NCBI GenBank assembly: GCA_963843145.1
Contig: CAWJJC010000007.1
Span: 1 to 14,674, forward strand
DNA from: an uncultured delta proteobacterium
Lineage (GTDB): Bacteria > Desulfobacterota > RBG-13-43-22
Direction: 5' to 3'
Length of the DNA stretch: 14,674 nt
Shown here: positions 40 to 14,616 of the stretch, one piece after another
Numbering within the stretch: the first letter of the stretch is position 1
Layout: each line of letters starts with the position of its first letter
Position numbers and translations under genes: made by a program
Notes under the pieces: generated by a model
Seen by the model: the letters and a program-made list of their open reading frames with translations, nothing else
Told to the model about the DNA's origin: nothing
Databases searched by the model: none

Positions 40-516
40 TTGCGAGTTATATATTACCAAAAAAAAGACCTGATTGAATGGTTTGAATACAATTGCCGGT
101 CCTTACTCAAACACAAGCTGGTCTGCACCGGAACGACGGGGAGGTTGATCGAGGAGGCCCTTCAGTCGAAATTGGGCGACGAAGAAGTGGATTGTCAGAT
201 AGTGAAATTGAAATCAGGCCCTTTAGGAGGCGACCAGCAGTTGGGCGCCCTGATTACTGAAGGTCAGATTGATATGGTTATTTTTTTATGGGACCCCATG
301 CAGCCGCATCCCCACGATGTGGACGTGAAGGCCTTGCTGCGGATTGCGGTCCTTTACAATGTGCCGATCGCCTGTAACCGGGCCACCGCCGATTTTATCA
401 TGTCGTCGCCGTTAATGGAGGAACGATACGCCCCGGTCAAAAAGGATTTTGAGTCCTATATTAAGAGAGACGTAGACCTGGGACAGGTACCCGGCGAGGA
501 ATTGCAAGCCCAATAA
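40..516 (+). CDS. mgsA: Methylglyoxal synthase, apparently lacking its N-terminal IAL(I/V)AHD segment (possibly disrupted)
   Basis: MgsA motifs CTGTTG, SGPLGGDQQLG, FLWDPMQPHPHDVDVKALLR, YNVPIACNRATAD. Similarity begins only at about KKDLIEW (nt ~61-64). The TTG start at 40 has no SD and no AHD motif is encoded. Confidence 0.9.
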   Translation: MRVIYYQKKDLIEWFEYNCRSLLKHKLVCTGTTGRLIEEALQSKLGDEEVDCQIVKLKSGPLGGDQQLGALITEGQIDMVIFLWDPMQPHPHDVDVKALLRIAVLYNVPIACNRATADFIMSSPLMEERYAPVKKDFESYIKRDVDLGQVPGEELQAQ

Positions 517-731
517 GCCGGAACCCTTATCCCAAGAAATTCCTGGGAATACAAGCCTCGGTGGAAGCGATGGGGACTCTGGGGACCGGCAGGCACGGGG
601 TTCTTGATCAACCCAAACCCTTGGCACACCGGACAACATTGAAACCTCGGATCTTCTATATAACCTTGGCCGTAACAGCGAGAACAAAAGACCATACCGA
701 TCCTTTTCGGATCAAAAGAGTTCCCTTCCAT
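456..731 (-). CDS. Small protein with two CxxCxGxG repeats (DnaJ-type zinc finger), 91 aa
   Basis: CSRCYGQG and CPVCQGFG motifs. AGGAGG SD (743..738) precedes ATG at 731. The 3' end overlaps mgsA antisense by ~60 nt. Confidence 0.65.
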   Translation of the reverse strand: MEGNSFDPKRIGMVFCSRCYGQGYIEDPRFQCCPVCQGFGLIKNPVPAGPQSPHRFHRGLYSQEFLGIRVPAYWACNSSPGTCPRSTSLLI

Positions 732-811
732 TGCTTTCCTCCTGAAGCCTTTCTCCAATTCACTCAGTGGATTATATCTGGATCAACACGGTCAGCCGGA
801 TTCTTATGAAT

Positions 812-867
812 ACGGTAGAGGAAGAATGTGGCGGGAGGATGACCGGCAGATAAAAATTCGATTACAC
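812..867 (-). promoter_or_regulatory. Pho-box-like promoter (4 heptamers, 11-bp phase) for the 731 zinc-finger gene
   Basis: GTGTAAT-cgaa-TTTTTAT-ctgc-CGGTCAT-cctc-CCGCCAC-10 nt-TACCGT. 47/56 identical to 4357..4412. Confidence 0.65.
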
Positions 868-881
868 GGGGTGTTCTTTTT

Positions 882-1047
882 TTTCTCGCCCGCTTCGCTC
901 GAGTTCGCCGAGGGCGCAGAGAAAGACCAAGTTATTTTTTGAAAAATCGCTGAGAAGCCGCTTTTTCAAAAGAACTCACGCCTCCCGCGGGGTCAGCGGC
1001 AATCAAAAATTAGCTATTCTCAGCGATCTCTGGCGCTTGGAGAGAAA
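882..1047. repeat. Nested imperfect palindromic (REP/MITE-like) element
   Basis: Terminal TTTCTC/GAGAAA. Inner cgccgagggcgcagagaa (~906-923) pairs with ttctcagcgatctctggcg (~1017-1035). Internal IR ttttgaaaaa (937-946) / tttttcaaaa (962-971). Contains cgcttcgctc. Confidence 0.55.
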
Positions 1048-1131
1048 TCGTCTTTTGTCTTTGGTCGTGGTAAGGCGTTTGGCCCGGTTGGGAAAAGGTC
1101 TGTTGGCTGAAAGGGTAGTCAAGCCCTAATC

Positions 1132-1482
1132 TCAGGCAATCTCCCGCTCACTGACGATTTCCTGTTTGATGGCAGATAGCAGCGATTCAAAAACCGGGAG
1201 CACGTCCGTCCGGAATCGTCCGGCCACCAGGAGCAGCATGATGTCGTCCCCCACCTTCAGGTCTCCCCGGTTGATCCAGACCTTGATCTCCAATATCCCG
1301 TCTTTCTTCATTTGTTCGGAAACGACGGTCTTGAGCTTCTCCTCATCATAGGAAAGGTTCATCCCGCGCACCGGGTGGCCGTGTTTGGAGGTGGCCCGAA
1401 CGATGCCGTTATGGACCAGGATCATCCCCAAACCCTCGGGGTCCGCTTTCTTCTTCACTTCAGCCAGCCATTGCTCGATCAT
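1132..1482 (-). CDS. moaE: Molybdopterin synthase catalytic subunit MoaE-like protein
   Basis: GMILVHNGIVR and INRGDLKVGDDIMLLLVAGRFRTDV are typical of short MoaE-family proteins. 116 aa. Confidence 0.85.
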   Translation of the reverse strand: MIEQWLAEVKKKADPEGLGMILVHNGIVRATSKHGHPVRGMNLSYDEEKLKTVVSEQMKKDGILEIKVWINRGDLKVGDDIMLLLVAGRFRTDVLPVFESLLSAIKQEIVSEREIA

Positions 1483-1514
1483 GTCGACCCTACTAATGGT
1501 TTAGATCGGAGATA

Positions 1515-1766
1515 CTAAGCGGCTTTCACCTCTACCCGGTAGCCGAGGCTTGACAGAAAGTCATAACAATCTTCCCAAGTCAAACCAAAAGCTTTTACAT
1601 CTGCTACGCCAATGCGGGCAATTATGTTCCGCAGGGTGGGCGCATCCTTTGGATCAAACACCTCTTCATTCATCACCTGCTCTGCCCAATCGACCAGTTG
1701 GGCAAGAGTAATCCTGTGATTGAGGTAGGCAACCAATTGATCACGTACCGTTTGACGTTGAATCAT
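1515..1766 (-). CDS. Hypothetical protein, 83 aa
   Basis: GGAG SD upstream of ATG. Globular, helical-looking sequence (ITLAQLVDWAE...GLTWEDC). Co-oriented with moaE, 32 nt gap. Confidence 0.75.
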   Translation of the reverse strand: MIQRQTVRDQLVAYLNHRITLAQLVDWAEQVMNEEVFDPKDAPTLRNIIARIGVADVKAFGLTWEDCYDFLSSLGYRVEVKAA

Positions 1767-1769
1767 GAC

Positions 1770-1859
1770 TCAGACTCCATCGATCCAGTATCTTCGTCCA
1801 TCTGAGGGGAAATCTTCCCAGTTAGGGAATTTACTCTCGTTAGCGGTGCGAGTAGTCAT
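1770..1859 (-). pseudogene. 29-aa ORF resembling the N-terminus of a Uma2 (DUF820) family endonuclease
   Basis: MTTRTANESKFPNWEDFPSDGRRYWIDGV* resembles the Uma2 start 'EDxxxxPDDGxRYELIDG'. It ends 3 nt before the next ATG. Confidence 0.4.
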
Positions 1860-1894
1860 GGATGGTGTTGGAAAATAGTTTATACCTTAGAAGA

Positions 1895-1924
1895 ATTATA
1901 TACCCCGGTAGGGTAAAAAATCAA
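1895..1924 (-). promoter_or_regulatory. Sigma70 promoter with a CsoR/RcnR-family-like operator in the spacer
   Basis: TTGATT-N18-TATAAT on the minus strand. The spacer holds the pseudo-palindrome ATACCCCGGTAGGGTAA (1900-1916). Confidence 0.6.
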
Positions 1925-2157
1925 ACTATATTGGGGCCACGGATCGGCCAACACCTGAGATTATTGGGAATAGAGGCTGTTATTACCGGCGGACTTCATC
2001 TCCGAGAGGGTTCGGGTTACCCAGCTCCAGCAAGAGGCGGTCCGCCTCAGTCGAATCGATCCGGTAAGGCCCTTGGGCTTTATCAATACAGGGATGATAA
2101 TCTGCTAATAATCCTCGCTCTGCCGGCCGAGGCGCGTCTTTTCATTCACTATTAATT

Positions 2158-2188
2158 GAGGAAACCCGCGGGTCTCGCGGGTTTCCTC
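2158..2188. terminator. Strong hairpin, likely terminator downstream of the phosphoesterase gene
   Basis: 13-bp perfect stem gaggaaacccgcg / cgcgggtttcctc with a 5-nt loop, ~50 nt after the stop at 2240. The U-tract is weak on the minus strand and short on the plus strand. Confidence 0.65.
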
Positions 2189-2239
2189 GTTTTGCCGGCT
2201 TTTGAATGCTATCTCTGTCGATCCATTCGCCTTGTCGGG

Positions 2240-4120
2240 TTATCTTTTCCCGAAATGTCTAAAACCGGCTACGGCGAAATCGCCACCGTAGTTAACAACC
2301 GCCCAGGCAGTGTGTTTTTTCAGGTCGATACCATAGGTGCCGAGACCGTAGCTCGAGTTGTATGGCCCTAGGACGAATTTCTTGACGCTGCCGTCACCGA
2401 AATTCATATCCACGGCGTTGACCCAGTTACCGTTCTCATCCGGGGCGGCCAGGCCTAACAAGCCGTGTCCGAATTGAACCGGGAGCAAGCGATGGTGATC
2501 GTAGCTCATGGAGAGGACATACGTATCGGTCTTCTCGGCGCCGAGGTCGGCCATGCCCCACAAGGTCAGAATGTCGCTTTCGGGATCATCACATTTCTTC
2601 CGCGTCCCGTTATTCTTAGGTGCCCAGCCGGTGTTGACGGCTTTTTCGGTCGCCTTCCCGTAGTTGGTCGTGGCCGTGCTTCCGTTAATGCCGTCGAGGA
2701 TGGCCATGGAGGTGCCGACAAACCCGCGTTCCATATGGGCGGCCACCTTTGTATCATCGGTCATGGCGTAGGACGCGCCTTGAGCAACGAGGTTCTCTGT
2801 ACCGTTCAAGCTGTAGCCTGTGGTGGACCGCTTGACGAAGTGGAGGGTGGGGGTAGTCCCGAGGGGAAAGTTGACGAGGTCTAAGTTAAAATAAGGGAAT
2901 TTACCGTCCGACTGCCAGTTGCCGTGATCGTCGGCATAGTAGTCGATGGTCACGCGCGGGCCGTCCACGGTGAAGATGTAATATCCAACACGTGCGAGGT
3001 CCTGTTCAACCGGGGCATCATTGCCCGAAGCGGGTAAACCCGGGGTATAGAACTTGGAGCTATCAGACTGGGTGATGAGCTGATGAACCTTGCTCAGTCC
3101 ATCGGGGCTCGTAACCACTGAATTGTAATGGTGGTGATCGTGGCCGGAAATCACGTACTTAACATTGTTGGCCTGCATCGAGTCGAGGAAGGTGTTCATG
3201 GCAGACTGCTTGCCACCAACAGTGAGCCCTGGGGTGTTGGTAATCACCGTGTCGGGATCAAGCCCATAGCCGTCACCGGGATCGTTGTTAGCGTTTCCAC
3301 CGAACATATTGTCCTTGTGGTTGCCGCCCAGGATGTTCTTGTGGGTAAAGGCGAAGGCGTGGGTGTTGGCCGGACGGCCGGAGAGGGTGCTTTCGATCCA
3401 CGACTGCTGATCGGGGATGTAGCTGGTGTAGTAATCGGGGGATTTGAACTGGTCGAGCAGCATGAAGGTCACGTTTTTATAGTCGAAGGCGTATGAGACG
3501 CCGCCGGTGTAAGCGTTGACGCTGTCGGGTGCGGAGAAGTGGCTGCCCACCTTGAATGTTTTTTGTTTGGCCTTGTCCGCCGGTGGATTGCCAGTGATGG
3601 GGTCCAGGTCGGCGGAAGGGATGAGGGCCGTATTGATGTCGCCCGGGGTGTTGTTATTTACACCGGCGTAGGAGTCAGGCACGATCTGGGGGTAGGCATG
3701 CTCATAATCATCGCCAGAACCCGTGTAGGTTCCGTGGGCGGCCTCGTGGTTGCCGCGCAGCGGGTAAAAGCCGATGCCCGCATTGTACAGGTCCTGGGCG
3801 TAGAGCGCCCGGGTGTAGTCATTGACCTGGCTGCCCGAGTCCACCATGTCGCCGACGTGGACGACGAGTTTGACGCCCTGGGCGATGAACTGCTGATCCA
3901 CCTGTTTGATGATGTCGGCGGCGCAGGTATTCGGGTTCTTACCGTCATCCGCTATGGTCCACTGGGTGTCCGAGATGACGCCGAAACTCCATGGTTCTCC
4001 GGATGCCGGTCCCGCTGTAATTTTTTGTAATGAACATGCTTCCGCGGATGTCGACCCCACCGCGATGAGAATCGCGAGCAGCAGGGCCAACGGTGTTTTG
4101 GACCAAAGTATTTTCTTCAT
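2240..4120 (-). CDS. Secreted calcineurin-like metallophosphoesterase (phosphatase-like), 626 aa
   Basis: Signal peptide (MKKILWSKTPLALLLAILIAVGSTSAEA). Metallophos motifs SDTQ, HVGDMVD, LRGNHE, FTHKN, ISGHDHHH. Extra C-terminal domain. AAAGGA SD. Confidence 0.9.
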   Translation of the reverse strand: MKKILWSKTPLALLLAILIAVGSTSAEACSLQKITAGPASGEPWSFGVISDTQWTIADDGKNPNTCAADIIKQVDQQFIAQGVKLVVHVGDMVDSGSQVNDYTRALYAQDLYNAGIGFYPLRGNHEAAHGTYTGSGDDYEHAYPQIVPDSYAGVNNNTPGDINTALIPSADLDPITGNPPADKAKQKTFKVGSHFSAPDSVNAYTGGVSYAFDYKNVTFMLLDQFKSPDYYTSYIPDQQSWIESTLSGRPANTHAFAFTHKNILGGNHKDNMFGGNANNDPGDGYGLDPDTVITNTPGLTVGGKQSAMNTFLDSMQANNVKYVISGHDHHHYNSVVTSPDGLSKVHQLITQSDSSKFYTPGLPASGNDAPVEQDLARVGYYIFTVDGPRVTIDYYADDHGNWQSDGKFPYFNLDLVNFPLGTTPTLHFVKRSTTGYSLNGTENLVAQGASYAMTDDTKVAAHMERGFVGTSMAILDGINGSTATTNYGKATEKAVNTGWAPKNNGTRKKCDDPESDILTLWGMADLGAEKTDTYVLSMSYDHHRLLPVQFGHGLLGLAAPDENGNWVNAVDMNFGDGSVKKFVLGPYNSSYGLGTYGIDLKKHTAWAVVNYGGDFAVAGFRHFGKR

Positions 4121-4356
4121 CTTATTTTCCTTTCAAAATTCTTTTAGATTTTAGAATGTTGTCTGTTCTACTAAACATTTCCGTAAATAATTTAGTGTTC
4201 TTGGACAAGAAAACCTGTCTTACCCGTTGAGTTCGTTTCGCGAAAAGCCTCACCTCCTTCACGCTTCCCTGCGGATTATTTTTTTTGAGAAGATGTTTTT
4301 AAAGCCGAGGGGATTATTAAGTTCGAATCACCTCGGTGACCCGAACGCTGGGGAGT

Positions 4357-4412
4357 ACCATAGCGGAGGAATGTAACGGGAGGATGACCGGCAAATAAAA
4401 ATTCAATTACAG
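4357..4412 (-). promoter_or_regulatory. Pho-box-like promoter (4 heptamers) for the metallophosphoesterase
   Basis: CTGTAAT-tgaa-TTTTTAT-ttgc-CGGTCAT-cctc-CCGTTAC-10 nt-TATGGT. Confidence 0.7.
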
Positions 4413-4474
4413 GGAAGGAAATGATCCCCGGGAGGGGAATTCAGTTTTCGTTAAGCTTTCGGAAAGGTTGCAGG

Positions 4475-4612
4475 GTGCAAAATCGAAGAAAGTCGGCCAG
4501 GATGAAATTTTGGTTAACAAACCATTATCTGATCATCATCCAATTGGCGGGGATGGCTTCGTCGCTTCACTCCTCGCAATGACAGCCCGGGGGACTTTCT
4601 GCGAGTCCGTCA
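4475..4612. mobile_element. Degenerate MITE-like element carrying half of a REP-like palindrome
   Basis: Inverted ends tcgaagaaagtc (4483-4494) / gactttctgcga (4593-4604), 11/12 match. Internal gcttcgtcgcttcactcctcgcaatgaca. Confidence 0.45.
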
Positions 4613-4637
4613 CCAATGAACCCTTAAAAAAACCTTT

Positions 4638-4671
4638 CCTTCATATTCCTGTAACGCTTCCCGAGTAAATT
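4638..4671 (+). promoter_or_regulatory. Pho-box-like promoter (2 heptamers) facing ORF 4943
   Basis: CCTTCAT-attc-CTGTAAC-10 nt-TAAATT. Confidence 0.6.
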
Positions 4672-4713
4672 CGTATTCAGATCAAGTGGCGATACCCTAC
4701 GCGGGGTTTACCT

Positions 4714-4878
4714 TCACCCTGATCCTGAAGGGGGTTCACCTTGAAGGCAAAGACGAGACCCTTCATTTCACTCAGGGTGACAAGCTGGCAAAGAGCTCAG
4801 AATGACGATAAGCGAAGGATCCAGAGTGACAAACTGGGGGAAGGTTCGGGGTGACAGCAGACCGCAGGGATCAGGACA
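4714..4878. repeat. REP-like palindrome followed by a 24-25-nt tandem array
   Basis: IR tcaccctga (4714-4722) / tcagggtga (4772-4780). TGAC cores at 4778, 4803, 4827 and 4852, consensus ~GCGAAGGGCTCAGrGTGACA, plus a degenerate fifth unit. Confidence 0.65.
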
Positions 4879-4942
4879 AGATACCGTAATAATGTAATAA
4901 GAAAACGAATACGTTTAAATAATTAACGAAGGTGAGGCACTA

Positions 4943-5230
4943 ATGTTTTGTAAAAGGCTAAAAGCCACGATGAAAGTCGGCACCTGCCAAAAGCGACAGG
5001 AAAGGGCCCTTCGCGATTTAAGTTATGAGGTTTGCCGTGATTGCCCGCAGATTTTGAAGGTCAACGCCGGGAAAGAATCGGACCGGGATGTGAACCGGAT
5101 TATCAAGGAATTGGCTGGGTCCCCGCCCCTGCCGGTATTTTACCACTGGGCGTCTGCCCAGGCCGGGAGACCCAAGCCCAATAATTGTTTTAGGAAAAAA
5201 AGACAACCCGGCGGGCAGAGGAACGATTGA
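4943..5230 (+). CDS. Hypothetical small basic protein with four Cys (possible zinc binding), 95 aa
   Basis: AAGGTGAGG SD before ATG. C3, C15 and CRDC pattern. Confidence 0.65.
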   Translation: MFCKRLKATMKVGTCQKRQERALRDLSYEVCRDCPQILKVNAGKESDRDVNRIIKELAGSPPLPVFYHWASAQAGRPKPNNCFRKKRQPGGQRND

Positions 5231-5375
5231 ACAAAACCTGGAAGGGGTCCATTCAAATAAAAGGCGATTCCCCCTTTGAGCTAGGTAACCCACCAATTTG
5301 GTGAGGCTGCCGGGTCTGGGAGAAAGGGTTTTCCAAAGGTACTCCGGACTTCTTAGCCGGGCCTAGCAGATTACC

Positions 5376-5404
5376 AAAAAAAGATGCCCCGGATACCGGG
5401 GCAT
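5376..5404 (-). terminator. Rho-independent terminator after the HMA2-like gene
   Basis: Minus strand ATGCCCCGG-TAT-CCGGGGCAT-C-TTTTTTT. Confidence 0.85.
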
Positions 5405-5443
5405 GAAGGAGGGTTGAGACAAGAAAAGAGCCTTGGGGGATTA

Positions 5444-5815
5444 TTACATCAAAACGGAGACAAAGGATATCGGCGTACCGGCCAGGGCCACATCGACAAA
5501 AGAGCCGAAAAAGGCCTTCCAGACGATTTCTCCGGCCGTCGAAATGGCCCCCTGAATATATTCGTCGTGGGTTTTGGCTTTGGCCGGATTGAAATGTCCA
5601 ATATCGGTCAACCGGGAGATGATTTCCTGATCGGTTACCATCCGGGAGTCATAGTTGACTACCACGCTGCCGGTCAGGGTACTGACCGAGGTGGATTTAA
5701 TACCTTCCATTTCCTTCAGAAGATTTTCCACCACCACCGCTTCCGTCTGATTGTTTTTAATCGAGGGCGATTTGATACGCAGTCGGCCAGGAACTTGATG
5801 GACGTAGTAGCTCAT
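5444..5815 (-). CDS. HMA2 (heavy-metal-associated-like) domain protein, 123 aa
   Basis: YYVHQVPGRLRIK...GIKSTSVSTLTGSVVVNYD signature. AGGAGG SD. Hydrophobic C-terminus. Confidence 0.8.
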   Translation of the reverse strand: MSYYVHQVPGRLRIKSPSIKNNQTEAVVVENLLKEMEGIKSTSVSTLTGSVVVNYDSRMVTDQEIISRLTDIGHFNPAKAKTHDEYIQGAISTAGEIVWKAFFGSFVDVALAGTPISFVSVLM

Positions 5816-6107
5816 TGTAGCACATTCCTCCTTTAAGGAACATTTTGAGATAGTGGCGGCAGTCGGGATAGCCGGAACAACGGAACCGGATCACCCGGGG
5901 ATAACGGCGATAGACGTGCATGGGCCGGCCGCATGCCGGGCAGGTCGGTTTCTCCTTCATCGATACCCTTTCCGGGTCGAGGACAAATTGCCTCCCGCAG
6001 ACCAGGCAGAAGTAACGCTGTTTCTTGTTCCAGGTCTTTCCATAGCGATAGATAGCCTCTGACTCGCAGTGGGGACATCGAATTGGAGTAGTATCGCTAT
6101 CAAGCAT
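5757..6107 (-). CDS. Double zinc-ribbon protein (InsA/IS1-type ribbon plus topoisomerase-type C4 finger), no DDE domain, 116 aa
   Basis: CPHC...YRYGK...QRYFCLVCGRQF and CPACGRPM...FRCSGYPDC. ATG at 6107 chosen because it lies 6 nt after a -10 element. Confidence 0.75.
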   Translation of the reverse strand: MLDSDTTPIRCPHCESEAIYRYGKTWNKKQRYFCLVCGRQFVLDPERVSMKEKPTCPACGRPMHVYRRYPRVIRFRCSGYPDCRHYLKMFLKGGMCYNELLRPSSSWPTAYQIALD

Positions 6108-6113
6108 GACCCC

Positions 6114-6169
6114 AAGATATAGTAGGAATGTGACAGTTTGATGAAGGAAATCTATCGATTTCGTTAAAT
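6114..6169 (-). promoter_or_regulatory. Pho-box-like promoter predicting a leaderless transcript
   Basis: ATTTAAC-gaaa-TCGATAG-attt-CCTTCAT-caaa-CTGTCAC-10 nt-TATCTT-6 nt-ATG. Confidence 0.75.
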
Positions 6170-6197
6170 AATTCTTCAAAAATAACAAAATATTAAG

Positions 6198-6253
6198 AAG
6201 TTATCTAATTTTCACCTCCGCACCATCAAATTGCCACGCAGTTTCGGTAAACC
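6198..6253 (+). promoter_or_regulatory. Pho-box-like promoter for the olsF-like gene
   Basis: AAGTTAT-ctaa-TTTTCAC-ctcc-GCACCAT-caaa-TTGCCAC-10 nt-TAAACC (imperfect -10). Confidence 0.55.
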
Positions 6254-6299
6254 ATTTATCCAGAAACTGGCTGTAAACCTAAAAAAAAGGAGGTAGGTC

Positions 6300-8186
6300 A
6301 TGGAAGAAACAAGCTTGGAAGCCCCCCCATTTAAAATTGATTTTCAGTACTCTCGTCCCTGGCCCCGCAAATTTTTTCCTCTGATCGAAGCCTCTCTGGA
6401 GCGGGCCTTATCCTTTCCCCGCTTAAACAGGATGTATGCCCAAGTGGCCTGCGGATCGGACGACCGGTCCTTTTTCGAGAGGTCGCTGGCCCAACTGCGC
6501 ATCGGCCTCCAGATCTCCGAACTTGATCGAGCCCGTCTGCCCCGTCGGGGACCGGTCGTGGTAGTCGCCAACCATCCCTTTGGAGGCATCGAAGGCCTCG
6601 TCCTGGCCGATTTGCTCCTCAAGGTCCGGCCGGATGTGAAGATCCTGGCCAATTATCTTTTGGAACGCATCCCGGAAGTACGGGATTATCTGATTTTCGT
6701 GGACCCTTTTGGGCGGAAAGAATCGGCTGGGAAGAACCTTAAAGGTCTGCGGGAGTCCATTGATTGGCTGAAAAACGGGAACTTGCTGGGGATTTTCCCG
6801 GCCGGGGAGGTGGCCCACTGGAGTTTGAAAAATAAATCCATCACCGACCCGAAGTGGGGAGAGCTGGTGGCCGGCCTGGTCAGGAAAAGCAGGGCCTCGG
6901 TGGTCCCGGTCTATTTTCAGGGAAGAAACAGTGCCTGGTTCCATCTCCTGGGATTGATTCATCCGCTGCTCCGGACGGCGATGCTCCCTCATGAGTTGCT
7001 GAACAAAATGAATTCACAGGTTGAAATCAAGGTCGGCCAGCCGATCCCCTTCAAAAAAATTGAACGGTTTGCAAACGATCGGGAGCTAATCGAATATCTC
7101 CGGCAACGAACTTACCTGCTGGGTAAGCGCCTACCTGAGAACCAAAATGGTGTAGAAAAGCAACAGGTGAAACGGAGACGGGCCTGGAAGCCTTTGGTCG
7201 TGCCCACCGTTAAGAATTTTCTGCTGGAAGAAGTCCGTAATCTACCCGAATCCCAGGTACTCCTGGAACAGGAAGACTATGCAGTTTTCTGGGCCCGGGC
7301 CTCCCAGGTTCCCTATGTTCTTAGGGAAGTGGGCCGGTTGAGGGAAATCACTTTCCGGGAAGCCGGGGAGGGGACCGGAGAATCCATCGACCTGGACCTT
7401 TTTGACTCGCATTATCACCACCTGATTCTTTGGCAGAAAAAGACCCTTGAAGTGGTAGGGGCTTACCGTCTGGGGCCCACGGACTTGATATTAAACCGTT
7501 ACGGGAAGAAGGGGCTATACACCACTTCCCTGTTTAAATTTCACAACGACTTCTTCCTGCAGGTTCATCCCGCCCTGGAATTGGGGCGATCCTTCATCCG
7601 CCGGGAATACCAACGAGCCTTTAGTACCCTGATGCTGCTCTGGAAAGGCATCGGGCAGTATGTGGTCCGCTACCCCCGGTACCGCTTTCTCTTCGGGCCG
7701 GTGAGCATCAGCGACGACTACCGGCGCATTTCCAAAACCCTGCTGATAAAATTTTTGCGGGAGCAAAATTATCGTCCGGAGCTGGCCCGCTGGGTCAAGG
7801 CCAAGCGTCCTTACCGGCAGGACCTCCGCAAAGGATGGATGGACCAGGCTGTGGCTTCCATGATCGGGGACGCCGCCGAAGTATCGGATTGGATCGCCGA
7901 ACTGGAGGCGGACCAGAAAGGCATTCCCATACTTTTGAAACAGTATTTAAAGTTGGGGGGTAAGCTGTTGGGCTTCAATATCGATGCCCAATTCAGCCGG
8001 GTGGTGGACGGATTGATTTTGGTGGACCTGGCCAAGACCAACCCGGTGGTGCTGGAAAAATACCTGGGAAAAGAGGGGGCCGACTTCTTCCTAAGCCACC
8101 ATCAGACCCCGGATACGGCTGAGGTCGTTGGCCGGTTTCCCGGGGCGGAAGAGGCCGAAAGCCCTCAGACCGCCAACGCGGCCTGA
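6300..8186 (+). CDS. olsF: Bifunctional lysophospholipid acyltransferase / GNAT N-acyltransferase, OlsF-type ornithine (amino)lipid synthase
   Basis: N-terminal PlsC-like domain (VVANHPFGGIEG, IFPAGEV). C-terminal Acetyltransf_5-type domain (EVGRLREITFREAGEG, GAYRLG, LELGRSF, IPILLKQYLKLGGK). AAGGAGGT SD. Confidence 0.85.
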   Translation: MEETSLEAPPFKIDFQYSRPWPRKFFPLIEASLERALSFPRLNRMYAQVACGSDDRSFFERSLAQLRIGLQISELDRARLPRRGPVVVVANHPFGGIEGLVLADLLLKVRPDVKILANYLLERIPEVRDYLIFVDPFGRKESAGKNLKGLRESIDWLKNGNLLGIFPAGEVAHWSLKNKSITDPKWGELVAGLVRKSRASVVPVYFQGRNSAWFHLLGLIHPLLRTAMLPHELLNKMNSQVEIKVGQPIPFKKIERFANDRELIEYLRQRTYLLGKRLPENQNGVEKQQVKRRRAWKPLVVPTVKNFLLEEVRNLPESQVLLEQEDYAVFWARASQVPYVLREVGRLREITFREAGEGTGESIDLDLFDSHYHHLILWQKKTLEVVGAYRLGPTDLILNRYGKKGLYTTSLFKFHNDFFLQVHPALELGRSFIRREYQRAFSTLMLLWKGIGQYVVRYPRYRFLFGPVSISDDYRRISKTLLIKFLREQNYRPELARWVKAKRPYRQDLRKGWMDQAVASMIGDAAEVSDWIAELEADQKGIPILLKQYLKLGGKLLGFNIDAQFSRVVDGLILVDLAKTNPVVLEKYLGKEGADFFLSHHQTPDTAEVVGRFPGAEEAESPQTANAA

Positions 8187-8256
8187 AGGCCGGGGATTGT
8201 TCAGCCTTATTTCGAGTCTATAGTATATTTTTTTGGAATTTGAGTGAGGTAAAGGA

Positions 8257-8475
8257 ATGAAAAAACTATTTGTTTTACCGCTTTTCTTGGTGTGGGTGGC
8301 CTGCCTGTCCACCTATTGGAAGGAAACGCAAATGTGGGCCCAGAGTTTTTCTGGATTATACTTTAGTGGGGGGCCCACCTCACCCGCCTTGGAACCCGGC
8401 ACCCTGCTTTTTTTAGGGTCCGGACTCTTGGGAACGGGATTTGTCATCCGAAATAACTGGATGAAGAAGGATTAA
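8257..8475 (+). CDS. Miniature exported protein with a PEP-CTERM-like sorting signal, 72 aa
   Basis: N-terminal signal (MKKLFVLPLFLVWVACL). C-terminal LEPGTLLFLGSGLLGTGFVIRNNWMKKD matches the PEP-CTERM pattern. Confidence 0.7.
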   Translation: MKKLFVLPLFLVWVACLSTYWKETQMWAQSFSGLYFSGGPTSPALEPGTLLFLGSGLLGTGFVIRNNWMKKD

Positions 8476-8530
8476 CGGTTTGGGCCTACCAGCGGTGGCG
8501 GGGTTGGTCCAAGCCGTACCCTCTTCGATA

Positions 8531-8941
8531 TCAGGCGGCTTGTTGTTCTTCTTCCGGCAGAAAAGCCCGGACTTTTTCCCGGAGGGGTTGGGGAATCTCC
8601 GTGATAAAATGGCCACGGTAGAGGACCAGACGTTGCCGTTGGGAAAGAATCAGATCGATCGGGAAGGCCCTGAGCAGTTCGCCGGCTTTCCGGAAGGATA
8701 TACGGGAGTGCATGGTGATCCCCCGTTGAATAATAATATAACTGGCCTTTTGCCGGGTATCCAGGCAAAGAATGCGGATAGGGTCTTTCAGCGGGAATTT
8801 TTCCAACTCGCCCCAATGGTTTTTCACCTCGATGGACCCCTTTCCCACGTCTTCCGGCTCAAAATAGTTTCGAATTCCCCGGTCAAATTCCGCGATGATA
8901 GGTTCCTCCAGATCCGGCTGATAGCCATAATCCAGGGACAA
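8531..8941 (-). CDS. Hypothetical protein, ~136 aa
   Basis: Protein-like composition, TTG start, convergent with 8257..8475, candidate promoter directly upstream. No family recognised. Confidence 0.6.
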   Translation of the reverse strand: MSLDYGYQPDLEEPIIAEFDRGIRNYFEPEDVGKGSIEVKNHWGELEKFPLKDPIRILCLDTRQKASYIIIQRGITMHSRISFRKAGELLRAFPIDLILSQRQRLVLYRGHFITEIPQPLREKVRAFLPEEEQQAA

Positions 8942-8971
8942 CTGCCTGGTTTTCGGTCTTGAGTCAGGGAA

Positions 8972-9016
8972 TATGTAGCAGGGTTGTGTTAATAATCAGT
9001 GGTGAAATGGTGAAGT
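8972..9016 (-). promoter_or_regulatory. Weaker Pho-box-like promoter for ORF 8941
   Basis: ACTTCAC-catt-TCACCAC-tgat-TATTAAC-10 nt-TACATA, with TG upstream of the -10. Confidence 0.4.
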
Positions 9017-9043
9017 TTTTGCAAACAAATGAAGAATCTTCGG

Positions 9044-9061
9044 CGCCTCCAGAGGGAGGCG
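9044..9061. terminator. Short GC hairpin downstream of phoH
   Basis: cgcctcc-agag-ggaggcg. No clear U-tract. Confidence 0.35.
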
Positions 9062-9099
9062 AACTGGGGCCTGTAAAACATTAATCCGATAACGATTTG

Positions 9100-10398
9100 T
9101 TACAACAACCGGGCCCCCAGCTCGGCCACTTGGGACCTTTCCCCTTTGATCAAGGTTACGTGCCCGGTGATCTCCTCGCCTTTCAGCTTTTCCACCAGGT
9201 AGCTCAAGCCGTTGCTGTTGGCGTCCAGGTAGGGATGGTCGATCTGCTCCGGATCGCCGGTGAAGACGATCTTGGTGCCCCCGCCGACCCGGGTGATGAG
9301 GGTCTTGATCATGTGGGGGAAAGGTTCTGGGCCTCGTCGCAGATGATGAACTGCCGGGGAATGCTGCGGCCGCGGATGTAGGTCAGCGCCTCCATTTCGA
9401 TCAGGCCCCGCTCCAGCAGGTCCTCCACCACTGCCGAGGGCTGGGCGGCGCTATTGGAGAGGAACTCCAGATTGTCGTAGATGGGCTGCATCCAGGGGCG
9501 GAGCTTTTCTTCCTTGGAACCGGGAAGATAGCCGATGTCCTGTCCCATGGGGATAACGGGACGGGTAATCAGCAGCCGGTGTAAATTGATTTTGCTCCAT
9601 CACTTTTTCCAGCCCCACCGCCAGGGCCAGCAGGGTCTTGCCGGTCCCGGCCTTGCCCACCAGGGTGACCACCTTCACCGGATCGTCCAACAGCAGCTCC
9701 AAGGCGAACTTCTGTTCCTTGTTGCGGGCCTTGATGCCCCAATTGGGGATTTTCCGTGGGACAGGGGCAGGAGATGTCCCGGAAGTGCCGGGCCAGGGCG
9801 GACTGGGAGGGGTTGACTCTTGCCTCAGGAGGATGAAAAAATGATGGGGCCACGCGGCTCGGTTTCGGAGACCTGCACCCGACCTTCCCGGTAGAGGCGG
9901 TCCAGTTCCTCGGCGCTCAGGTGCCTTTCCTCCACGCCGTTATAGAGCTGCTGATAATCGACCCTATCCGACTGAAAATCCTCCGCCTGAATCCCCAGCA
10001 CGTCGGCTTTGATGCGCAGGTTCAAGTCCTTGGTGACCAGGACCGTGCCGCCTTCCTGGCGGCGGTTCAAATAATGCGCCACGGCCAGGATGCGATTGTC
10101 GAATTTTGGGGTCCAGGCGCCGGGAGGCTCGTGCCATCCTGATGGTTGAGTTCGATCCACAACATCCCGCCGTCTCGGCATGGGTAGTCCCTCCGCAAGA
10201 TTGCCATGGGCCCGCGAGGGCGTCCAATTTTCGCGAGACCATCCGTGCATTCCGGCCGATCTCGTCCTGCCCCCTTTTCTGGTTGTCGATCTCCTCCACC
10301 ACCGCCAACGGAATGATGACTTCGTTGTCCTGAAAGGCGAACAAAGCGTTCGGATCGTGCAGCAAGACATTGGTGTCTAAAATATAGAGGTTGGACAT
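9100..10398 (-). pseudogene. phoH: PIN-PhoH (PhoH2-type) ATPase with about 8-10 frameshifts (pseudogene or sequencing error)
   Basis: PIN domain YILDTNVLLHDP, DNRILAVA, LVTKDLNLRIKAD. Walker [41 protein letters not shown]. These motifs are spread across all three minus frames. Confidence 0.9.
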
Positions 10399-10452
10399 GA
10401 GCGGTTTCCTTTAATACGAAAATAGAATATTTGGTGGTTATTCCAGCCCTTT

Positions 10453-10537
10453 TGAAATCCCCCTAAATCCCCCTCTGCTAAAGGGGGACTTTAACTCCCC
10501 CCCTTTGGCAAAGGGGGGGCGGGGGGGGGGATTTTCA
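10453..10537. repeat. C/G-tract palindromic REP-like element
   Basis: Terminal TGAAATCCCCC / GGGGGATTTTCA with two internal hairpins, ccccctctgctaaaggggg and ccccccctttggcaaaggggggg. Adjacent catgc...gcatg palindrome (10536-10564). Confidence 0.7.
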
Positions 10538-10632
10538 TGCTTCGGGGTGCCCGCCCCGGGCATGGGGGTTTAGTAGGTAAAGGAGACAAGAAATCGTTTC
10601 CTGGGTGTTTGTTTTGGGCCGTCTTCCCGGAT

Positions 10633-13101
10633 TCATACGGCCTCGGCCAGGTCGCTTTTCCCGGGACGGAGCGGGTGGCGGTACATTTCCCAAGTTTCCT
10701 GGAAAGCCTTCTCAAAAGAGCGGTCCTCCAAAAACTGCCTCGCCGCCAGTCCCATGCGTTTCAGTCGCAGGGGATCGGCAACCAGGTTTTCCACGGCGTC
10801 GACGAGGGCCTGGGGATTATTTGCGGGGACGATCAGCCCCGTTTCCCCGGACAGAATGTTTTCTTGAGGCCCGCCCTGGTCTGTCACAATGACCGGCAAT
10901 CCCGAGGCCTGGGCCTCCAGAATGACATTCCCGAAGGTATCCGTACTGCTGGGGAAAATGAACAGATCGGCCGAGGCATAGGCCGCCGCCAGGTCCTCCC
11001 CGTCTAAATATCCGGTAAACAGACAGGGGGTATCACTCATCCAGTCTTGAAATTCTTTCCAATAGGGTCCGTCCCCCACAATAATGAGCTGCAGGTCTTT
11101 TCGCTGGTGCCAGATCCGCTGATAGGCCTCGCCTAAGACCCGGAGGTTTTTTTCTTTGGAGACCCGGCCTACGTAGAGGAGCTTAAATCCCGGCCGGACG
11201 GCGAACCGGGCCTCAAAAAAACCGTTCCGCTTGTCCGGATGGAATCGCTGCGTATCGATGCCCCGGGCGAAGAGTTGGATCTTGTTCGCGGCCAGGCCCT
11301 TTCCGATCAATCCCTGCCGGGTGCTTTGGGAGGGGACATAGACCCGGTCCATCTGGTCATAATACCAGCAGATATATTTCCAGGCGAGATCTTCGATATC
11401 GGGGTCCTCGGTCAGGTAGCGGGCGTACTGAGGGATCGAGGTGTGGTAGGTGCTGTAACAGGGCAGCTTGAGAATGCGGGCGATCACCAAGGCCGCCAGA
11501 CCGACCGGACCCGGAGTGGCCGTGTGGATGGCCACAAACTGCTCCCGGTAGCAATACTGCAGCATTTCCAGAAAAGGCGGAAAATGGAGTTTGAATTCCG
11601 GGTACTCCGCCAGGTCGTAAGATCCGACGGGACGGAATTTTTTGATTTCCGGCTCGGCGTCCTGTTCGTCGGTCCAGTCACAAGTGATGACCGTGAGTCG
11701 CTTGTTGTTCTTTTTGGCCATGGCTACCTGTTGCTGGAGGGTCAGCGCCACTCCGTTGACCTGATAAAAGGTATCGGTAAAATGGGCGATCCGCAACCGC
11801 CGGGCGGGTTGGGCGGAGGGTGGGCCGAGAGGGCAGGAACGATTGATTTCCTCGGCCAGGTGCCGGTCCTGGGCGAAATGGGAAAAAGCGATGAAATAGG
11901 GGGCCATGAGGAAATAAAGCGAACCGGCGGAACCGACGGCCTGGAAAAGGCTGAAGACGTTTCCTTGGGACAGGTTATCCAAAAGGACGTTGCCGATCTG
12001 GAAAAGAATGCGGTTGGAAATCTGGTTTACCAGGGAAAACCACTTTTCTTCCAGCGGACGGGTTTGATCATCTCCATTTTTCAGGAATTGTTTCAAGGCC
12101 GGGTCGCCGGCCAGCAGCTTATAGATTTCGAAACGCAGGTAGTCCGGGAGGGACTGGAGGGTCTGTTGTGACCGAGAAGACCGTAAGCGGGCGCGGAGCA
12201 GATCGTAGACCTTGGAGACCAGCCGGGATTCACTCTGGTGCGGCGAATGGAGGAAGCGGTGCAACAGGCGCAGGAGCAAGTCTTTATGGAGATATTTGTC
12301 CAGTTGGAACTTATGGCAATAGAATTGGTAGGCAATGCTGTATAGGGTGCGGGCCAGCGAGGCCGGGGACGAAGCCTCCCCACAAACGACTGAACGTCCC
12401 TGCTCCAGACCCTGAAAAAAGTCATTCAGCGTCCGGGCGCCGAGCACCTCCGTATATTGCCGCCCAAGCGACAGGGTGCTGTGATCGTCGGACCCGCCGG
12501 TCAGGTGCTTTTCCCAGGGGTGGTCTCCGTAGGGGGCTAAGTTATACCGGTCGGCCAGCTTTTCCAGGTCAACCTGGCGGAGACGGGAAAGGAGTTCTTG
12601 CAAGAGGATATTGAGGTGTCCGTCCCGGGCCCCGTTCAGCTCGAAATAATTGAACAGCAACAGGCAACGTTCGAAATGGGTGAGGGTCAGCCGTTCATTG
12701 ACCCCGAAAAGAGGGTGGGCCAGCACGTGAAAGATTCCCCGGGAACGGAGATAGGGAACCAGCTCAAAGACGTTTTCCCGGAGGGTCTGCATTTCCCGGT
12801 GGATGACCTCATCGATTTGGTAGACCAGGACATGGAGCTTGCAGCGGTCCTCCGGAAAATAGGTAGTAACTTCTTCACTGAGAAAGGTGTGCGGCAGATG
12901 GGCGATGTCCAGGGACCCGGTCAGTTGATTGTGGTCGGTAATGGTGACATGGGTCAACCCTTGCTGCCGGGCCAGTTGATAAAGGCGCAGGGGCTCGGAA
13001 AAACTTTCCGGGCAGCCGATCTTTTTCAGTATCCAGGTGGAGGGGTTGCGGGAGTATTTGGAGTGGAGGTGCATATCGATTTTTACGGTTTGGGCTTCCA
13101 T
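10633..13101 (-). CDS. PHP-family metallohydrolase fused to a GT4 glycosyltransferase (putative glycolipid synthase), 822 aa
   Basis: PHP motifs DMHLHS, ITDHN, LAHP, FELNG, GGSDDH. GT4 motifs FTDTFYQVNGVA, HTATPGPVG, YVGRVSKEKN, DTFGNVILEAQASG. AAGGAG SD favours ATG at 13101. Confidence 0.9.
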   Translation of the reverse strand: MEAQTVKIDMHLHSKYSRNPSTWILKKIGCPESFSEPLRLYQLARQQGLTHVTITDHNQLTGSLDIAHLPHTFLSEEVTTYFPEDRCKLHVLVYQIDEVIHREMQTLRENVFELVPYLRSRGIFHVLAHPLFGVNERLTLTHFERCLLLFNYFELNGARDGHLNILLQELLSRLRQVDLEKLADRYNLAPYGDHPWEKHLTGGSDDHSTLSLGRQYTEVLGARTLNDFFQGLEQGRSVVCGEASSPASLARTLYSIAYQFYCHKFQLDKYLHKDLLLRLLHRFLHSPHQSESRLVSKVYDLLRARLRSSRSQQTLQSLPDYLRFEIYKLLAGDPALKQFLKNGDDQTRPLEEKWFSLVNQISNRILFQIGNVLLDNLSQGNVFSLFQAVGSAGSLYFLMAPYFIAFSHFAQDRHLAEEINRSCPLGPPSAQPARRLRIAHFTDTFYQVNGVALTLQQQVAMAKKNNKRLTVITCDWTDEQDAEPEIKKFRPVGSYDLAEYPEFKLHFPPFLEMLQYCYREQFVAIHTATPGPVGLAALVIARILKLPCYSTYHTSIPQYARYLTEDPDIEDLAWKYICWYYDQMDRVYVPSQSTRQGLIGKGLAANKIQLFARGIDTQRFHPDKRNGFFEARFAVRPGFKLLYVGRVSKEKNLRVLGEAYQRIWHQRKDLQLIIVGDGPYWKEFQDWMSDTPCLFTGYLDGEDLAAAYASADLFIFPSSTDTFGNVILEAQASGLPVIVTDQGGPQENILSGETGLIVPANNPQALVDAVENLVADPLRLKRMGLAARQFLEDRSFEKAFQETWEMYRHPLRPGKSDLAEAV

Positions 13102-13138
13102 GGCAGTCAACTCCTTTACGAATTTGAAAAATTCTCAA

Positions 13139-13834
13139 CTATTCGATTAACAGGGTTTCCCCGGCCCGGACCCGGTCACCGGTTTGAACCCGAATCCTCA
13201 GTCCTGTCGCCCGCGGGACCACGACATCCACCTGAGACCCGATCCGGATCATTCCGAATATCTCCCCGCGGGAGACCTGGTGCCCGGGTTTAAAATGACT
13301 TTCGATACCTCGGACATGCTTTCCGGCTATCTGAACGACATAACAGGGCAGACGCTGGTCCCGGTAAAGCCCTTCGATGCAGGTGACGGTCCGTTCGTTT
13401 CGCAGCAGGTGCAGGGAATTTCTGGTGTAATCACTCCGCCGGATCAGGGAACGCCAATGCATGGGCAGCATCTGCACGTTGTCCGGGTCGGCGGGATAAT
13501 GGTGGATGAACTTGATTTCTCCGGAAAGCGGAGCCCGGTTATAGTGCACATTGAACGGACTCATGAAGATGCCGATGTGAATTTTAGGGCAGGCCAGGTC
13601 CTGACGGCAGATATCGTTGATGCTGGCCGCGGTCCCTTTTTTTATGGCGATGATCTTTTCGCGAGGACCGACTTCCTGGACATAGACGACCCGCCCATCG
13701 GCCGGGCTGACCAGTCCCGACCCTCCCGGCGTTCGGCCGGGGTTGCGGAAGAACCAGATGTAGCGCCAATACAGGTAGGCCGAAATCAGGAGGATGAAGC
13801 CTGTTCCGATAATGAGCATGTTCCGGTCTTCCAT
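13139..13834 (-). CDS. psd: Phosphatidylserine decarboxylase family proenzyme
   Basis: N-terminal TM helix, WFFRNP, SPADGRV, IGIFMSPFNVHYNRAP, and the IRIGSQVD self-cleavage (GS) motif. Confidence 0.88.
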   Translation of the reverse strand: MEDRNMLIIGTGFILLISAYLYWRYIWFFRNPGRTPGGSGLVSPADGRVVYVQEVGPREKIIAIKKGTAASINDICRQDLACPKIHIGIFMSPFNVHYNRAPLSGEIKFIHHYPADPDNVQMLPMHWRSLIRRSDYTRNSLHLLRNERTVTCIEGLYRDQRLPCYVVQIAGKHVRGIESHFKPGHQVSRGEIFGMIRIGSQVDVVVPRATGLRIRVQTGDRVRAGETLLIE

Positions 13835-14549
13835 GGGTTTTCCTTAAGAAGTCGAACCAGGGCGACTCCGGAAGAAAAGGGGAAGGTCGACTGACTTCAA
13901 AACAATCGGGCTCACCTTTCAATTCCTGGACGAAGCGTTTGACTCCGGCGTGCCTAGGGCCTCTCGTACATAAATGTGGGAGTCATGAAGGAAAACGTAG
14001 CTGTTGGGCCGTGCCTGCCCGGGCAGTTTGCCGGAAATCATAGGAGACATCCTTATAGGCACTGATCGCCGTCGATGAAGGCCAGATCGATGGGCGGCAA
14101 ACTAAGCTGGGAATATTGAGAAAAGAACTGATCACTGCGCAGCTTGTAGTGGGTTATCCAGCGATCGACCCCGAAGCGGGCGAAATGATCTTTCACCTTC
14201 AGTGGATTATTCCATTTCGACTGACCGCCAACCGTGTGAAACGGACCGTTCTTGATCAAGGAATAGAGGGGTCGATAAAGGAAAGGTGTCCTTTCCCGTT
14301 GTCCTTCAGGCCCAGGGCCAGGCAAACCACGGAGAAGCCGTGTCCGGAGCCGATGACCAGGATGTGTTTGGGACGTACGGCCCGGACCAGACCGTAATAA
14401 AGGAAGCCGAATCCCAGGTTGGCGTTGCCCGGCCGGGAATGGTGCCCCAGCGGTTTGGCCTTTTTTAATATGCGTTGAATCAGATCGGGGGAGAGGCTGA
14501 AGGCCGAGAGGTCTATTACTTGAGGGCTGGTTTTGACTCGGTACAACAT
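13786..14549 (-). pseudogene. Class I SAM-dependent methyltransferase (Methyltransf_24-like) with about 5-6 frameshifts
   Basis: RPKHILVIGSGHGFS, IDLAFIDGD(H)AYKDVSYDF, PNSYVFLHD and GVKRFV spread over several frames. The 3' end is approximate. Confidence 0.8.
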
Positions 14550-14559
14550 ATGGGGGAAT

Positions 14560-14616
14560 ATTATACCCCCGGGAATATGGCGGAATTATGTCGATCCAAT
14601 GATTTTAAGGTAAAAA
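14560..14616 (-). promoter_or_regulatory. Pho-box-like promoter heading the methyltransferase-psd-PHP/GT4 operon
   Basis: TTTTTAC-ctta-AAATCAT-tgga-TCGACAT-aatt-CCGCCAT-11 nt-TATAAT. The ATG is only 10 nt after the -10 and has no SD. Confidence 0.6.

Follow-up and report, generated by a model that had tools for sequence, protein, structure and literature searches.

The 14,674-nt contig CAWJJC010000007.1 of an uncultured delta proteobacterium (Desulfobacterota, RBG-13-43-22; assembly GCA_963843145.1) carries seven stretches in which heptamers recur at an 11-bp period ahead of a −10-like hexamer. Judged from their sequence, the seven sites very probably act as Pho-box promoters under PhoR-PhoB control, and the contig, analyzed here over its whole length as "the window", is very probably one part of a phosphate-starvation island. 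The window is the entire contig C7 of genome G000 (5.35 Mb, 32 contigs, completeness 97.9%, contamination 6.9%). C numbers below are contigs of this genome, other G codes are comparison genomes, and L codes are comparison loci.

Architecture and statistics of the seven sites

All seven phased heptamer stretches listed in a first-pass annotation of this DNA were present, at the positions and on the strands it gave. A matrix was built from the pooled heptamers of 13 pstS promoters from 12 relatives, with G000's own promoters and three 35–40% matches excluded. It was used to rank 10,687,242 strand-positions of G000 for four heptamers at an 11-bp period plus a −10 hexamer 10–11 nt downstream. All 13 training promoters contained four heptamers at an 11-nt period, with a hexamer starting with TA 10 nt beyond. 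In G000, pstS ranked 1st, the divergent porin-like gene 2nd, and a second pstS 6th. The window sites, named here by their upstream coordinate and strand, ranked 3rd (4412, −), 7th/8th (6169, −, in a tie with its copy), 10th (867, −), 34th/35th (14616, −), 45th (4616, +), 133rd (6198, +) and 262nd (9027, −). Five sites are strong, and those of olsF (6198) and of a 136-aa gene (9027) are weaker.

Non-coding DNA of the window contained 7 sites scoring at least 8, where the rest of the genome predicts 0.84 (Poisson 2.7e-5), and 5 scoring at least 13, where 0.096 are predicted. Such a pattern might arise as a by-product where intergenic DNA is AT-rich and promoters are duplicated: sites 867 and 4412 are one promoter in two copies (77% over 88 nt), which leaves six independent sites, and the window has four kinds of dispersed repeat. 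However, 300 dinucleotide shuffles of the window gave a mean of 0.25 sites scoring at least 8 and a maximum of 2, and none attained 7. At periods of 9, 10, 12 and 13, the window had 1, 1, 0 and 0 sites scoring at least 8, and none scoring at least 13. A reverse matrix built on six window sites (867 omitted as a copy of 4412) ranked the porin 1st and pstS 2nd genome-wide, above its own training sites, and so recovered pst promoters on which it had not been trained; degP ranked 12th, the second pstS 21st and phoB 46th. Shuffles, period specificity and the reverse matrix together refute the by-product explanation, to which we assign a negligible probability. The first-pass annotation had proposed shuffled DNA and the pst promoters as checks on the sequence, and both came out in favor of the motif, which stands at pst promoters in both matrix directions and in the relatives.

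A refined, position-specific matrix was derived from 48 boxes in other genera; its training set includes orthologues of some of the sites, and within the window it returned exactly the seven.

Some details of the first description were modified. The proposed TAnnnT-like −10 hexamers start with TA throughout, but 6198 (TAAACC) and 9027 (TACATA) lack the final T. ATTC follows the last heptamer in four sites as described, but two of the four (867 and 4412) are the promoter copies. The box had been likened to the CTGTCAT of E. coli, but the consensus found here comes closer to YYGT(C/A)A(C/T). The distance from box end to predicted −10, read from the sequence, is about 10 nt. The 22 ungapped matches from other genomes showed differences at 33/440 heptamer-core positions and at 90/484 spacer positions; matches required 36/57 identities and came from related genomes, so the counts are dependent. 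An exact IUPAC pattern was also tried in 21 family genomes; it exceeded its reversed control in most, yet was too noisy for regulon mapping.

An accessory island joined to pstSCAB-phoU

The window corresponds, at about 90% identity, to part of a larger accessory island (~36 kb) that adjoins pstSCAB-phoU. It is colinear with C20:12005-27927 at 84–91% identity, and this counterpart lies 5 kb from a pstSCAB-phoU operon. In long blocks, C20 shares about 94% with G002 but about 90% with C7; C7 is therefore an old duplicate or else sequence from a relative binned together with G000. From the third pst operon to pyrF measures about 36 kb on C20 and about 33 kb in G002. On C9 of G000, the same two flanks lie about 400 nt apart with a moaE-like gene as the sole gene between them, which we infer to be an empty version of the island site. 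The island of G014 spans about 50 kb from phoBR to pstSCAB, and G032 and G005 have short versions. The cargo is patchy, several family genomes being incomplete: olsF was found in 6/18 other family genomes, a CoBaHMA-domain gene in 8/20, the methyltransferase in 4/20, and the phosphoesterase in 3/20.

On the refined matrix, 15 of the 16 G000 sites scoring at least 18 lay in C7, C20:1-40k or C8:65-86k, the outsider being degP; the 15 represent 10 distinct promoters. These regions had no site scoring at least 12 at other periods. Outside them, sites scoring at least 12 numbered 32 at period 11, against 24, 22, 40 and 16 at other periods; weak two-repeat sites may exist there. Matrix tests, pst promoters and clustering support the phosphate-starvation island that had been proposed, and the island exceeds the window. 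The PhoB mechanism is already known; what stands out here is that the predicted regulon is almost entirely gathered in an accessory island, and that it has a conserved CoBaHMA member.

Other features of these regions were noted. Beyond about 86,000 on C8, directly after a pst remnant, G+C rises from about 0.52–0.57 to 0.66, which suggests a mis-join or foreign DNA. Islands of relatives recurrently carry EAL-GGDEF, arsC-like (LMWPc), mntP-like, psiE and dedA genes, several of them boxed, that is, behind a box match (L061:8203-10020, L064:7887-9614, L058:14472-16400). A recurrent boxed operon (L062:15651-19847, L261:204-4778, L268:820-5259) encodes a protein of ~810 aa without a Pfam family, a phosphatidylserine-decarboxylase (PSD)-like protein and an Lgt-like membrane protein, with DUF3047 and a phosphoesterase added in G014; it is a candidate second lipid pathway.

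Identity of the regulator

G000 contains two OmpR-type response regulators, plus four weak winged-helix matches. One belongs to a phoB-phoR pair (C8:65376-67870) in the order phoB-phoR-porin-pstSCAB; its best family is PhoB (TIGR02154), and its recognition helix aligns with that of E. coli PhoB with small changes. The other, of the CusR-like OmpR type, is divided between two reading frames and stands ahead of a kinase gene and degP. The promoter of degP (C22:68714-68770) has a four-repeat layout with CTTC spacers, found in 11/12 genomes, and is probably the site of the CusR-like regulator. Because degP has this same layout, architecture alone cannot identify the regulator.

The CusR-like regulator, or both regulators, might read some of the sites, likeliest 867 and 4412, in response to envelope or metal stress, but we consider this improbable. 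The degP promoter has CGGTCA(T/G) units and CTTC spacers, and CGGTCAT-CCTC and ATTC occur in sites 867/4412; promoters of this type were seen solely in the window's own genus, where G000 and G002 carry the second system. Yet the phoB promoter of G005 contains CGGTCAT as well, as do boxes of G014, a genome without the second system. Moreover, 867 and 4412 rank above degP on all three matrices, 4412 precedes a phosphoesterase, and the split of the second regulator in G000, which may be a sequencing error, also speaks against such a role.

G014 and G010 (each 100% complete) have a single PF00486 protein, at phoB, and lack the second kinase. G014 has 18 boxes scoring at least 12 in 55 kb around phoB, and G010 has 10 boxes scoring at least 10 in 16 kb. 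In both, boxes precede pstS, phoB and CoBaHMA genes, and in G014 also olsF and the methyltransferase-GT4 operon. The first-pass annotation had named binding by a different OmpR-family regulator as the finding that would remove the phosphate link; the presence of boxes in two genomes with a sole OmpR-type protein favors PhoB, although G000 itself has a second such regulator. Five other-family genomes have 2–4 OmpR proteins each, and control of their boxes by PhoB is presumptive. PhoB is present in 18/20 other family genomes, and 13/18 phoB upstream regions scored at least 10 (two contig-end or partial matches excluded). A regular expression for the recognition helix of the second regulator gave no match. 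The validated PhoB consensus of Desulfovibrio vulgaris is (c/t)GT(n)AC (PMC3333781), and the local consensus agrees with the D. vulgaris box (PMC3333781, PMC6456213).

Several points weigh against PhoB control and the island. The C8 regulator scores 260 bits on TIGR02154, below the cut-off of 296.2. The degP promoter, an apparent target of the CusR-like regulator, shares the architecture and ranks 12th–14th on every matrix. The third pstS (C9:30339-31142) and phoU at C25 and at C20:135k are not high-ranking among the matches listed. Sites 6198 and 9027 fall within the background score range (192 sites scoring at least 8 elsewhere). The island limits were set after the matches had been seen, and C7 and C20 duplicate each other.

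Weighing these points, we strongly favor PhoB, and propose a mechanism modeled on E. coli and Desulfovibrio. In low phosphate, PhoR would phosphorylate PhoB, which would bind the 11-bp repeats head to tail, as up to two dimers on a strong proximal and a weaker distal pair. Bound PhoB would cover the −35 region, end 10 nt before the −10, and recruit sigma-70 polymerase. The predicted outputs are uptake (pst operons, porin), scavenging (metallophosphoesterase), phosphorus-sparing lipids via OlsF and probably also via the methyltransferase/PSD-like/GT4 operon, and several small proteins, the most conserved being the CoBaHMA protein with its zinc-ribbon partner.

Two further observations concern sites elsewhere in G000. 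The third pstS has no evident upstream box, as is likewise reported for one pst operon of D. vulgaris (PMC3333781). Two-heptamer 11-nt repeats at C28:396710 and C27:229508 lie beside large proteins with weak winged-helix matches, and are possibly sites of SARP-like regulators.

Sites and genes of the window

Gene labels in the window were taken from Pfam and NCBIfam profile matches. Site 1 (812..867, −; four heptamers, −10 TACCGT; score 18.6, refined matrix 26.9) points at a Cys-rich small ORF (456..758, −) with CxxCxGxG repeats resembling a DnaJ-type zinc finger (PF00684 E 0.009, below cut-off). The site is a paralogue of site 2 and has near-identical counterparts in C20, G002 and G001, where the only homologues of the ORF among the loci tested were found. 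Site 2 (4357..4412, −; four heptamers, −10 TATGGT; score 24.6), kept in C20 and G002, lies 236 nt upstream of a 626-aa calcineurin-like metallophosphoesterase (2240..4120, −; PF00149 E 1e-11), whose start looks signal-peptide-like by eye and which is likely a scavenging phosphatase. Site 3 (4616..4671, +; −10 TAAATT; score 13.2) combines two strong heptamers (4638-4655) with two poor ones, and precedes a 95-aa ORF with four Cys (4943..5230, +; no Pfam or NCBIfam match). It ranks 6th on a two-heptamer model, and both strong heptamers are identical in 4/4 other copies; the ORF has copies of 70–92% in C20, G001 and G002, and a 59% paralogue at C21.

Site 4 (6114..6169, −; four heptamers, −10 TATCTT; score 19.8) is recognizable in 7/7 other copies from three genera. 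The first gene behind it encodes a double zinc-ribbon protein (5757..6110, −; PF03811, PF01396), followed by the 123-aa CoBaHMA (Pfam HMA_2) protein (5444..5815, −; PF19991 E 2e-14), whose gene is the one boxed with the greatest consistency; in other families, zinc-ribbon homologues are boxed and adjoin or diverge from the CoBaHMA gene. Back to back with site 4 is site 5 (6198..6253, +; four weaker heptamers, −10 TAAACC; score 10.0, refined matrix 14.4), which precedes an OlsF-like bifunctional ornithine-lipid synthase gene (6300..8186, +; NF052615 416 bits, cut-off 620) and is kept in 5 other copies. Site 6 (8972..9027, −; three heptamers, −10 TACATA; score 8.5, refined matrix 13.9), the weakest, precedes the 136-aa ORF (8531..8941, −), which has no Pfam or NCBIfam match, gave no usable match in an Atlas search, and is 90% conserved in G002.

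Sites 5 and 6 could be chance matches or decayed, leaving five promoters here; this is compatible with the PhoB reading, and we hold it to be unlikely, if less so than control by the CusR-like regulator. Their ranks of 133 and 262 and their imperfect −10 elements point that way, as do the copies: site 6 falls to 3.5 in C20 (1-nt gap; 8.0 in G002), and site 5 scores 5.1 and 5.3 in G001 C27 and G004. On the other side, olsF is strongly boxed in G014 (17.0), G015 (17.2) and G026 (14.8), the first two by different, stronger boxes; the phase of site 5 is kept in all five copies; a cleaner, two-heptamer box occupies the position of site 6 in G001 C27; and both sites reach about 14 on the refined matrix.

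Site 7 (14560..14616, −; four heptamers, −10 TATAAT at 11 nt; score 13.9, refined matrix 25.5) precedes an operon for a methyltransferase (Methyltransf_24; 13789..14549, −), a PSD-like protein (13139..13834, −; PF02666 E 9e-39) and an 825-aa protein (10633..13110, −; PF00534, PF13439) with a PHP-like N-terminus (by eye) and a GT4 glycosyltransferase domain, a candidate glycolipid synthase. The site is kept in C20, G002 and G001, and orthologues in G014 and G012 are boxed at 12.3 and 13.9.

The regulon members proposed in the first-pass annotation fared differently. The phosphatase, OlsF and glycosyltransferase genes, or their operons, each stand behind a box. The uncharacterized small genes would also join the regulon, the Cys-rich ORF, the 95-aa ORF, the zinc-ribbon and CoBaHMA pair and the 136-aa ORF all being boxed. 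PhoH had to be dropped as a member by its own promoter: the gene is a frameshifted PIN-PhoH (PhoH2) gene (9100..10398, −) with no box of its own (best upstream score −0.9), and could be reached by read-through. MgsA had to be dropped as well. The mgsA remnant (40..516, +; NF003559) is convergent with site 1, matches the intact start from residue 15, lacks the first ~14 codons and the upstream DNA, and has no box in the window; on C20 it is split by an insertion, and two other copies show a weak candidate box only (score ~2). No own boxes were found when mgsA, moaE, the 83-aa ORF, phoH2, psd, GT4, the PEP-CTERM-like ORF and parA were scored (best −1.7 for moaE and the 83-aa ORF). The phoH2 gene lies in several frames here and the methyltransferase gene is frameshifted; both are intact in G001, and on C20 they are frameshifted at different places than in the window, which suggests assembly errors.

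The 83-aa ORF (1515-1766) had no further match in the genome or the loci tested, and a 72-aa ORF (8257-8475) has a weak PEP-CTERM-like tail. Four families of dispersed short repeats, with many copies genome-wide, lie at 862-1069, 4549-4612, 5255-5377 and 10531-10581, the first starting directly at site 1. When an island protein from a relative was searched in the Atlas, it matched clusters whose commonest phylum was Thermodesulfobacteriota. A search of sequencing runs gave two DNA runs (shares 0.06–0.07), with no RNA run among the matches listed.

The CoBaHMA gene and its neighboring module

In the 123-aa protein, H6, R11 and R13 are invariant and K15 nearly so among 22 aligned sequences, and there is no CxxC. 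A structure model places strands at 3–8 and 11–15, and a fold search with it matched HMA domains. The protein has the features that define CoBaHMA domains, namely an HMA fold with an extra His-bearing first strand and a basic next strand (PMC8890360), and Pfam HMA_2 has been equated with CoBaHMA (bioRxiv 10.1101/2024.07.07.602159). All five HMA_2 domains of G000 lie in C7 or C20:11-37k.

Within the family, 19 of 20 CoBaHMA matches were scored, the remaining one being the latter part of a split gene. The 15 close matches were all boxed (scores 16–24, within 450 nt) and none of the 4 distant ones, against 2/3,670 background regions scoring at least 16. In a 300-genome phylum sample, the gene occurred in 14 genomes of 11 other families. 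There, 12/15 loci were boxed, with scores of 12.9–35.6 at period 11 and none above 10.4 at other periods; the unboxed loci were in G159, which has the module described below, G097 and G176, where a contig end truncates the locus. In 15 wider regions around these loci, sites scoring at least 12 numbered 40 at period 11, against 3, 5, 1 and 3 at other periods.

The neighborhood of the gene recurs. Of the 15 other-family regions, 14 contain a calcium-type P2A pump, 14 a MetK-like gene (a fragment in one of them), 14 DUF5132 and 13 a membrane CoBaHMA gene. In G082, G115 and G288, the box, CoBaHMA, DUF5132, membrane CoBaHMA, repeat protein, pump and MetK-like genes are co-directional. Further neighbors include pstSCAB-phoU, Pit with DUF47, alkaline phosphatase, glycerophosphodiester phosphodiesterase and psiE. 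The pump operon of G000 falls outside the window, at the island's far end, and its own box is weak (4.7; 4.9 in G002, 7.5 in G014, 10.2 in G015). The nearest solved relatives of the pump are SPCA1 and LMCA1, and it has PEGL in the fourth helix and a P2A-type C-terminus. A second CoBaHMA-headed P2-type ATPase (C20:8222-11328 = L053; L056:3574-6411) has PSGL in place of PEGL and a sixth-helix motif without an acidic residue; it adjoins a ParA-like gene, and the two-heptamer box beside it faces away.

The island MetK-like copy of G002, the one copy aligned, diverges from E. coli MetK at GEITT, QSPD, GAGDQG, GGPMGD and TKVDR/SKVDR, and keeps GHPDK and GRK. We take the diverged stretches to have methionine-binding roles. 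This copy lacks the methionine-binding residues, yet passes the metK family cut-off; the housekeeping metK is located elsewhere, apart from the island copy. An Atlas search put no name on the repeat protein of the module. We found no description of the CoBaHMA/DUF5132/P2A/MetK-like module in the mostly open-access literature searched; supplementary target lists could name such genes.

By analogy, the CoBaHMA protein might be the soluble member of a PhoB-controlled kit that builds or empties a membrane-bound Ca- or Mn-phosphate store, a phosphate-controlled counterpart of the ferrosome; we offer this as a speculative and rather doubtful hypothesis. With similar reserve, the kit might comprise DUF5132, the membrane CoBaHMA protein, the Ala/Gly/Val repeat protein, the CoBaHMA-headed P2A pump, the MetK-like protein lacking a methionine pocket and sometimes a ParA-like ATPase. 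The suggestion of a storage compartment draws on likeness to the fez and calcyanin clusters. A plainer reading would have these genes export cations, either to offset metal-phosphate uptake or to metallate secreted phosphatases.

Meaning and comparison with known systems

For this family of uncultured anaerobes of deltaproteobacteria type, the analysis supplies a tested Pho-box model. Nearly the whole predicted direct phosphate response lies in one accessory region present in some relatives and absent from others, which could serve as a marker of adaptation to phosphorus-poor habitats. At least five uncharacterized genes are tied to a defined signal. The CoBaHMA family would gain a physiological trigger, as a stand-alone CoBaHMA gene lies behind a predicted Pho box in twelve families.

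In E. coli, Pho targets are scattered round the chromosome, whereas here they lie in one or two loci. The E. coli Pho box (PMC4415409) shares with the sites described here the 11-nt direct repeats of 7+4, and would share tandem binding and sigma-70 recruitment. Shared targets are pstSCAB-phoU, phoBR, a porin and phosphatases, with psiE in relatives. The consensus here is shifted to TGTAAC / CGTCAY, and four repeats are the rule.

PhoB of D. vulgaris Hildenborough (DVU1083; PMC3333781, PMC6456213) belongs to the same phylum-level group and has (c/t)GT(n)AC repeats; as here, it is one of two OmpR regulators, and one pst operon is unboxed. The targets listed in the accessible text of these papers include replication, amino-acid transport and a lactate operon, with no island and no CoBaHMA gene named. 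In D. alaskensis G20, OlsF and a group-1 (GT4) glycosyltransferase, a possible orthologue of the GT4 fusion here, are needed under phosphate limitation (PMC5193443); the locus numbers of olsF, agt, phoR and pst are far apart there, unlike the island here.

The ferrosome fez cluster (bioRxiv 10.1101/2020.01.10.902569) and the calcyanin neighborhood (bioRxiv 10.1101/2024.07.07.602159, PMC8890360) resemble the module in grouping a cation transporter with HMA-like R-rich or CoBaHMA proteins and with small hydrophobic proteins of the GxxxG or DUF5132 kind. In contrast to those clusters, the pump here is P2A, not P1B-6, a MetK-like gene is attached, and control appears to lie with PhoB. The R-rich HMA-like and GxxxG partner proteins that mark fez clusters are present in the module; the FezB P1B-6 motifs D[Y/F]SCA and HNxxT were not found in its pump, and no calcyanin was seen with it.

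Phosphate-acquisition islands of Prochlorococcus and SAR11 likewise place accessory genes near phoBR/pstS, patchily among relatives. The island described here differs from them in that clustering is seen at the level of predicted binding sites, and in that it includes lipid-remodeling and CoBaHMA genes.

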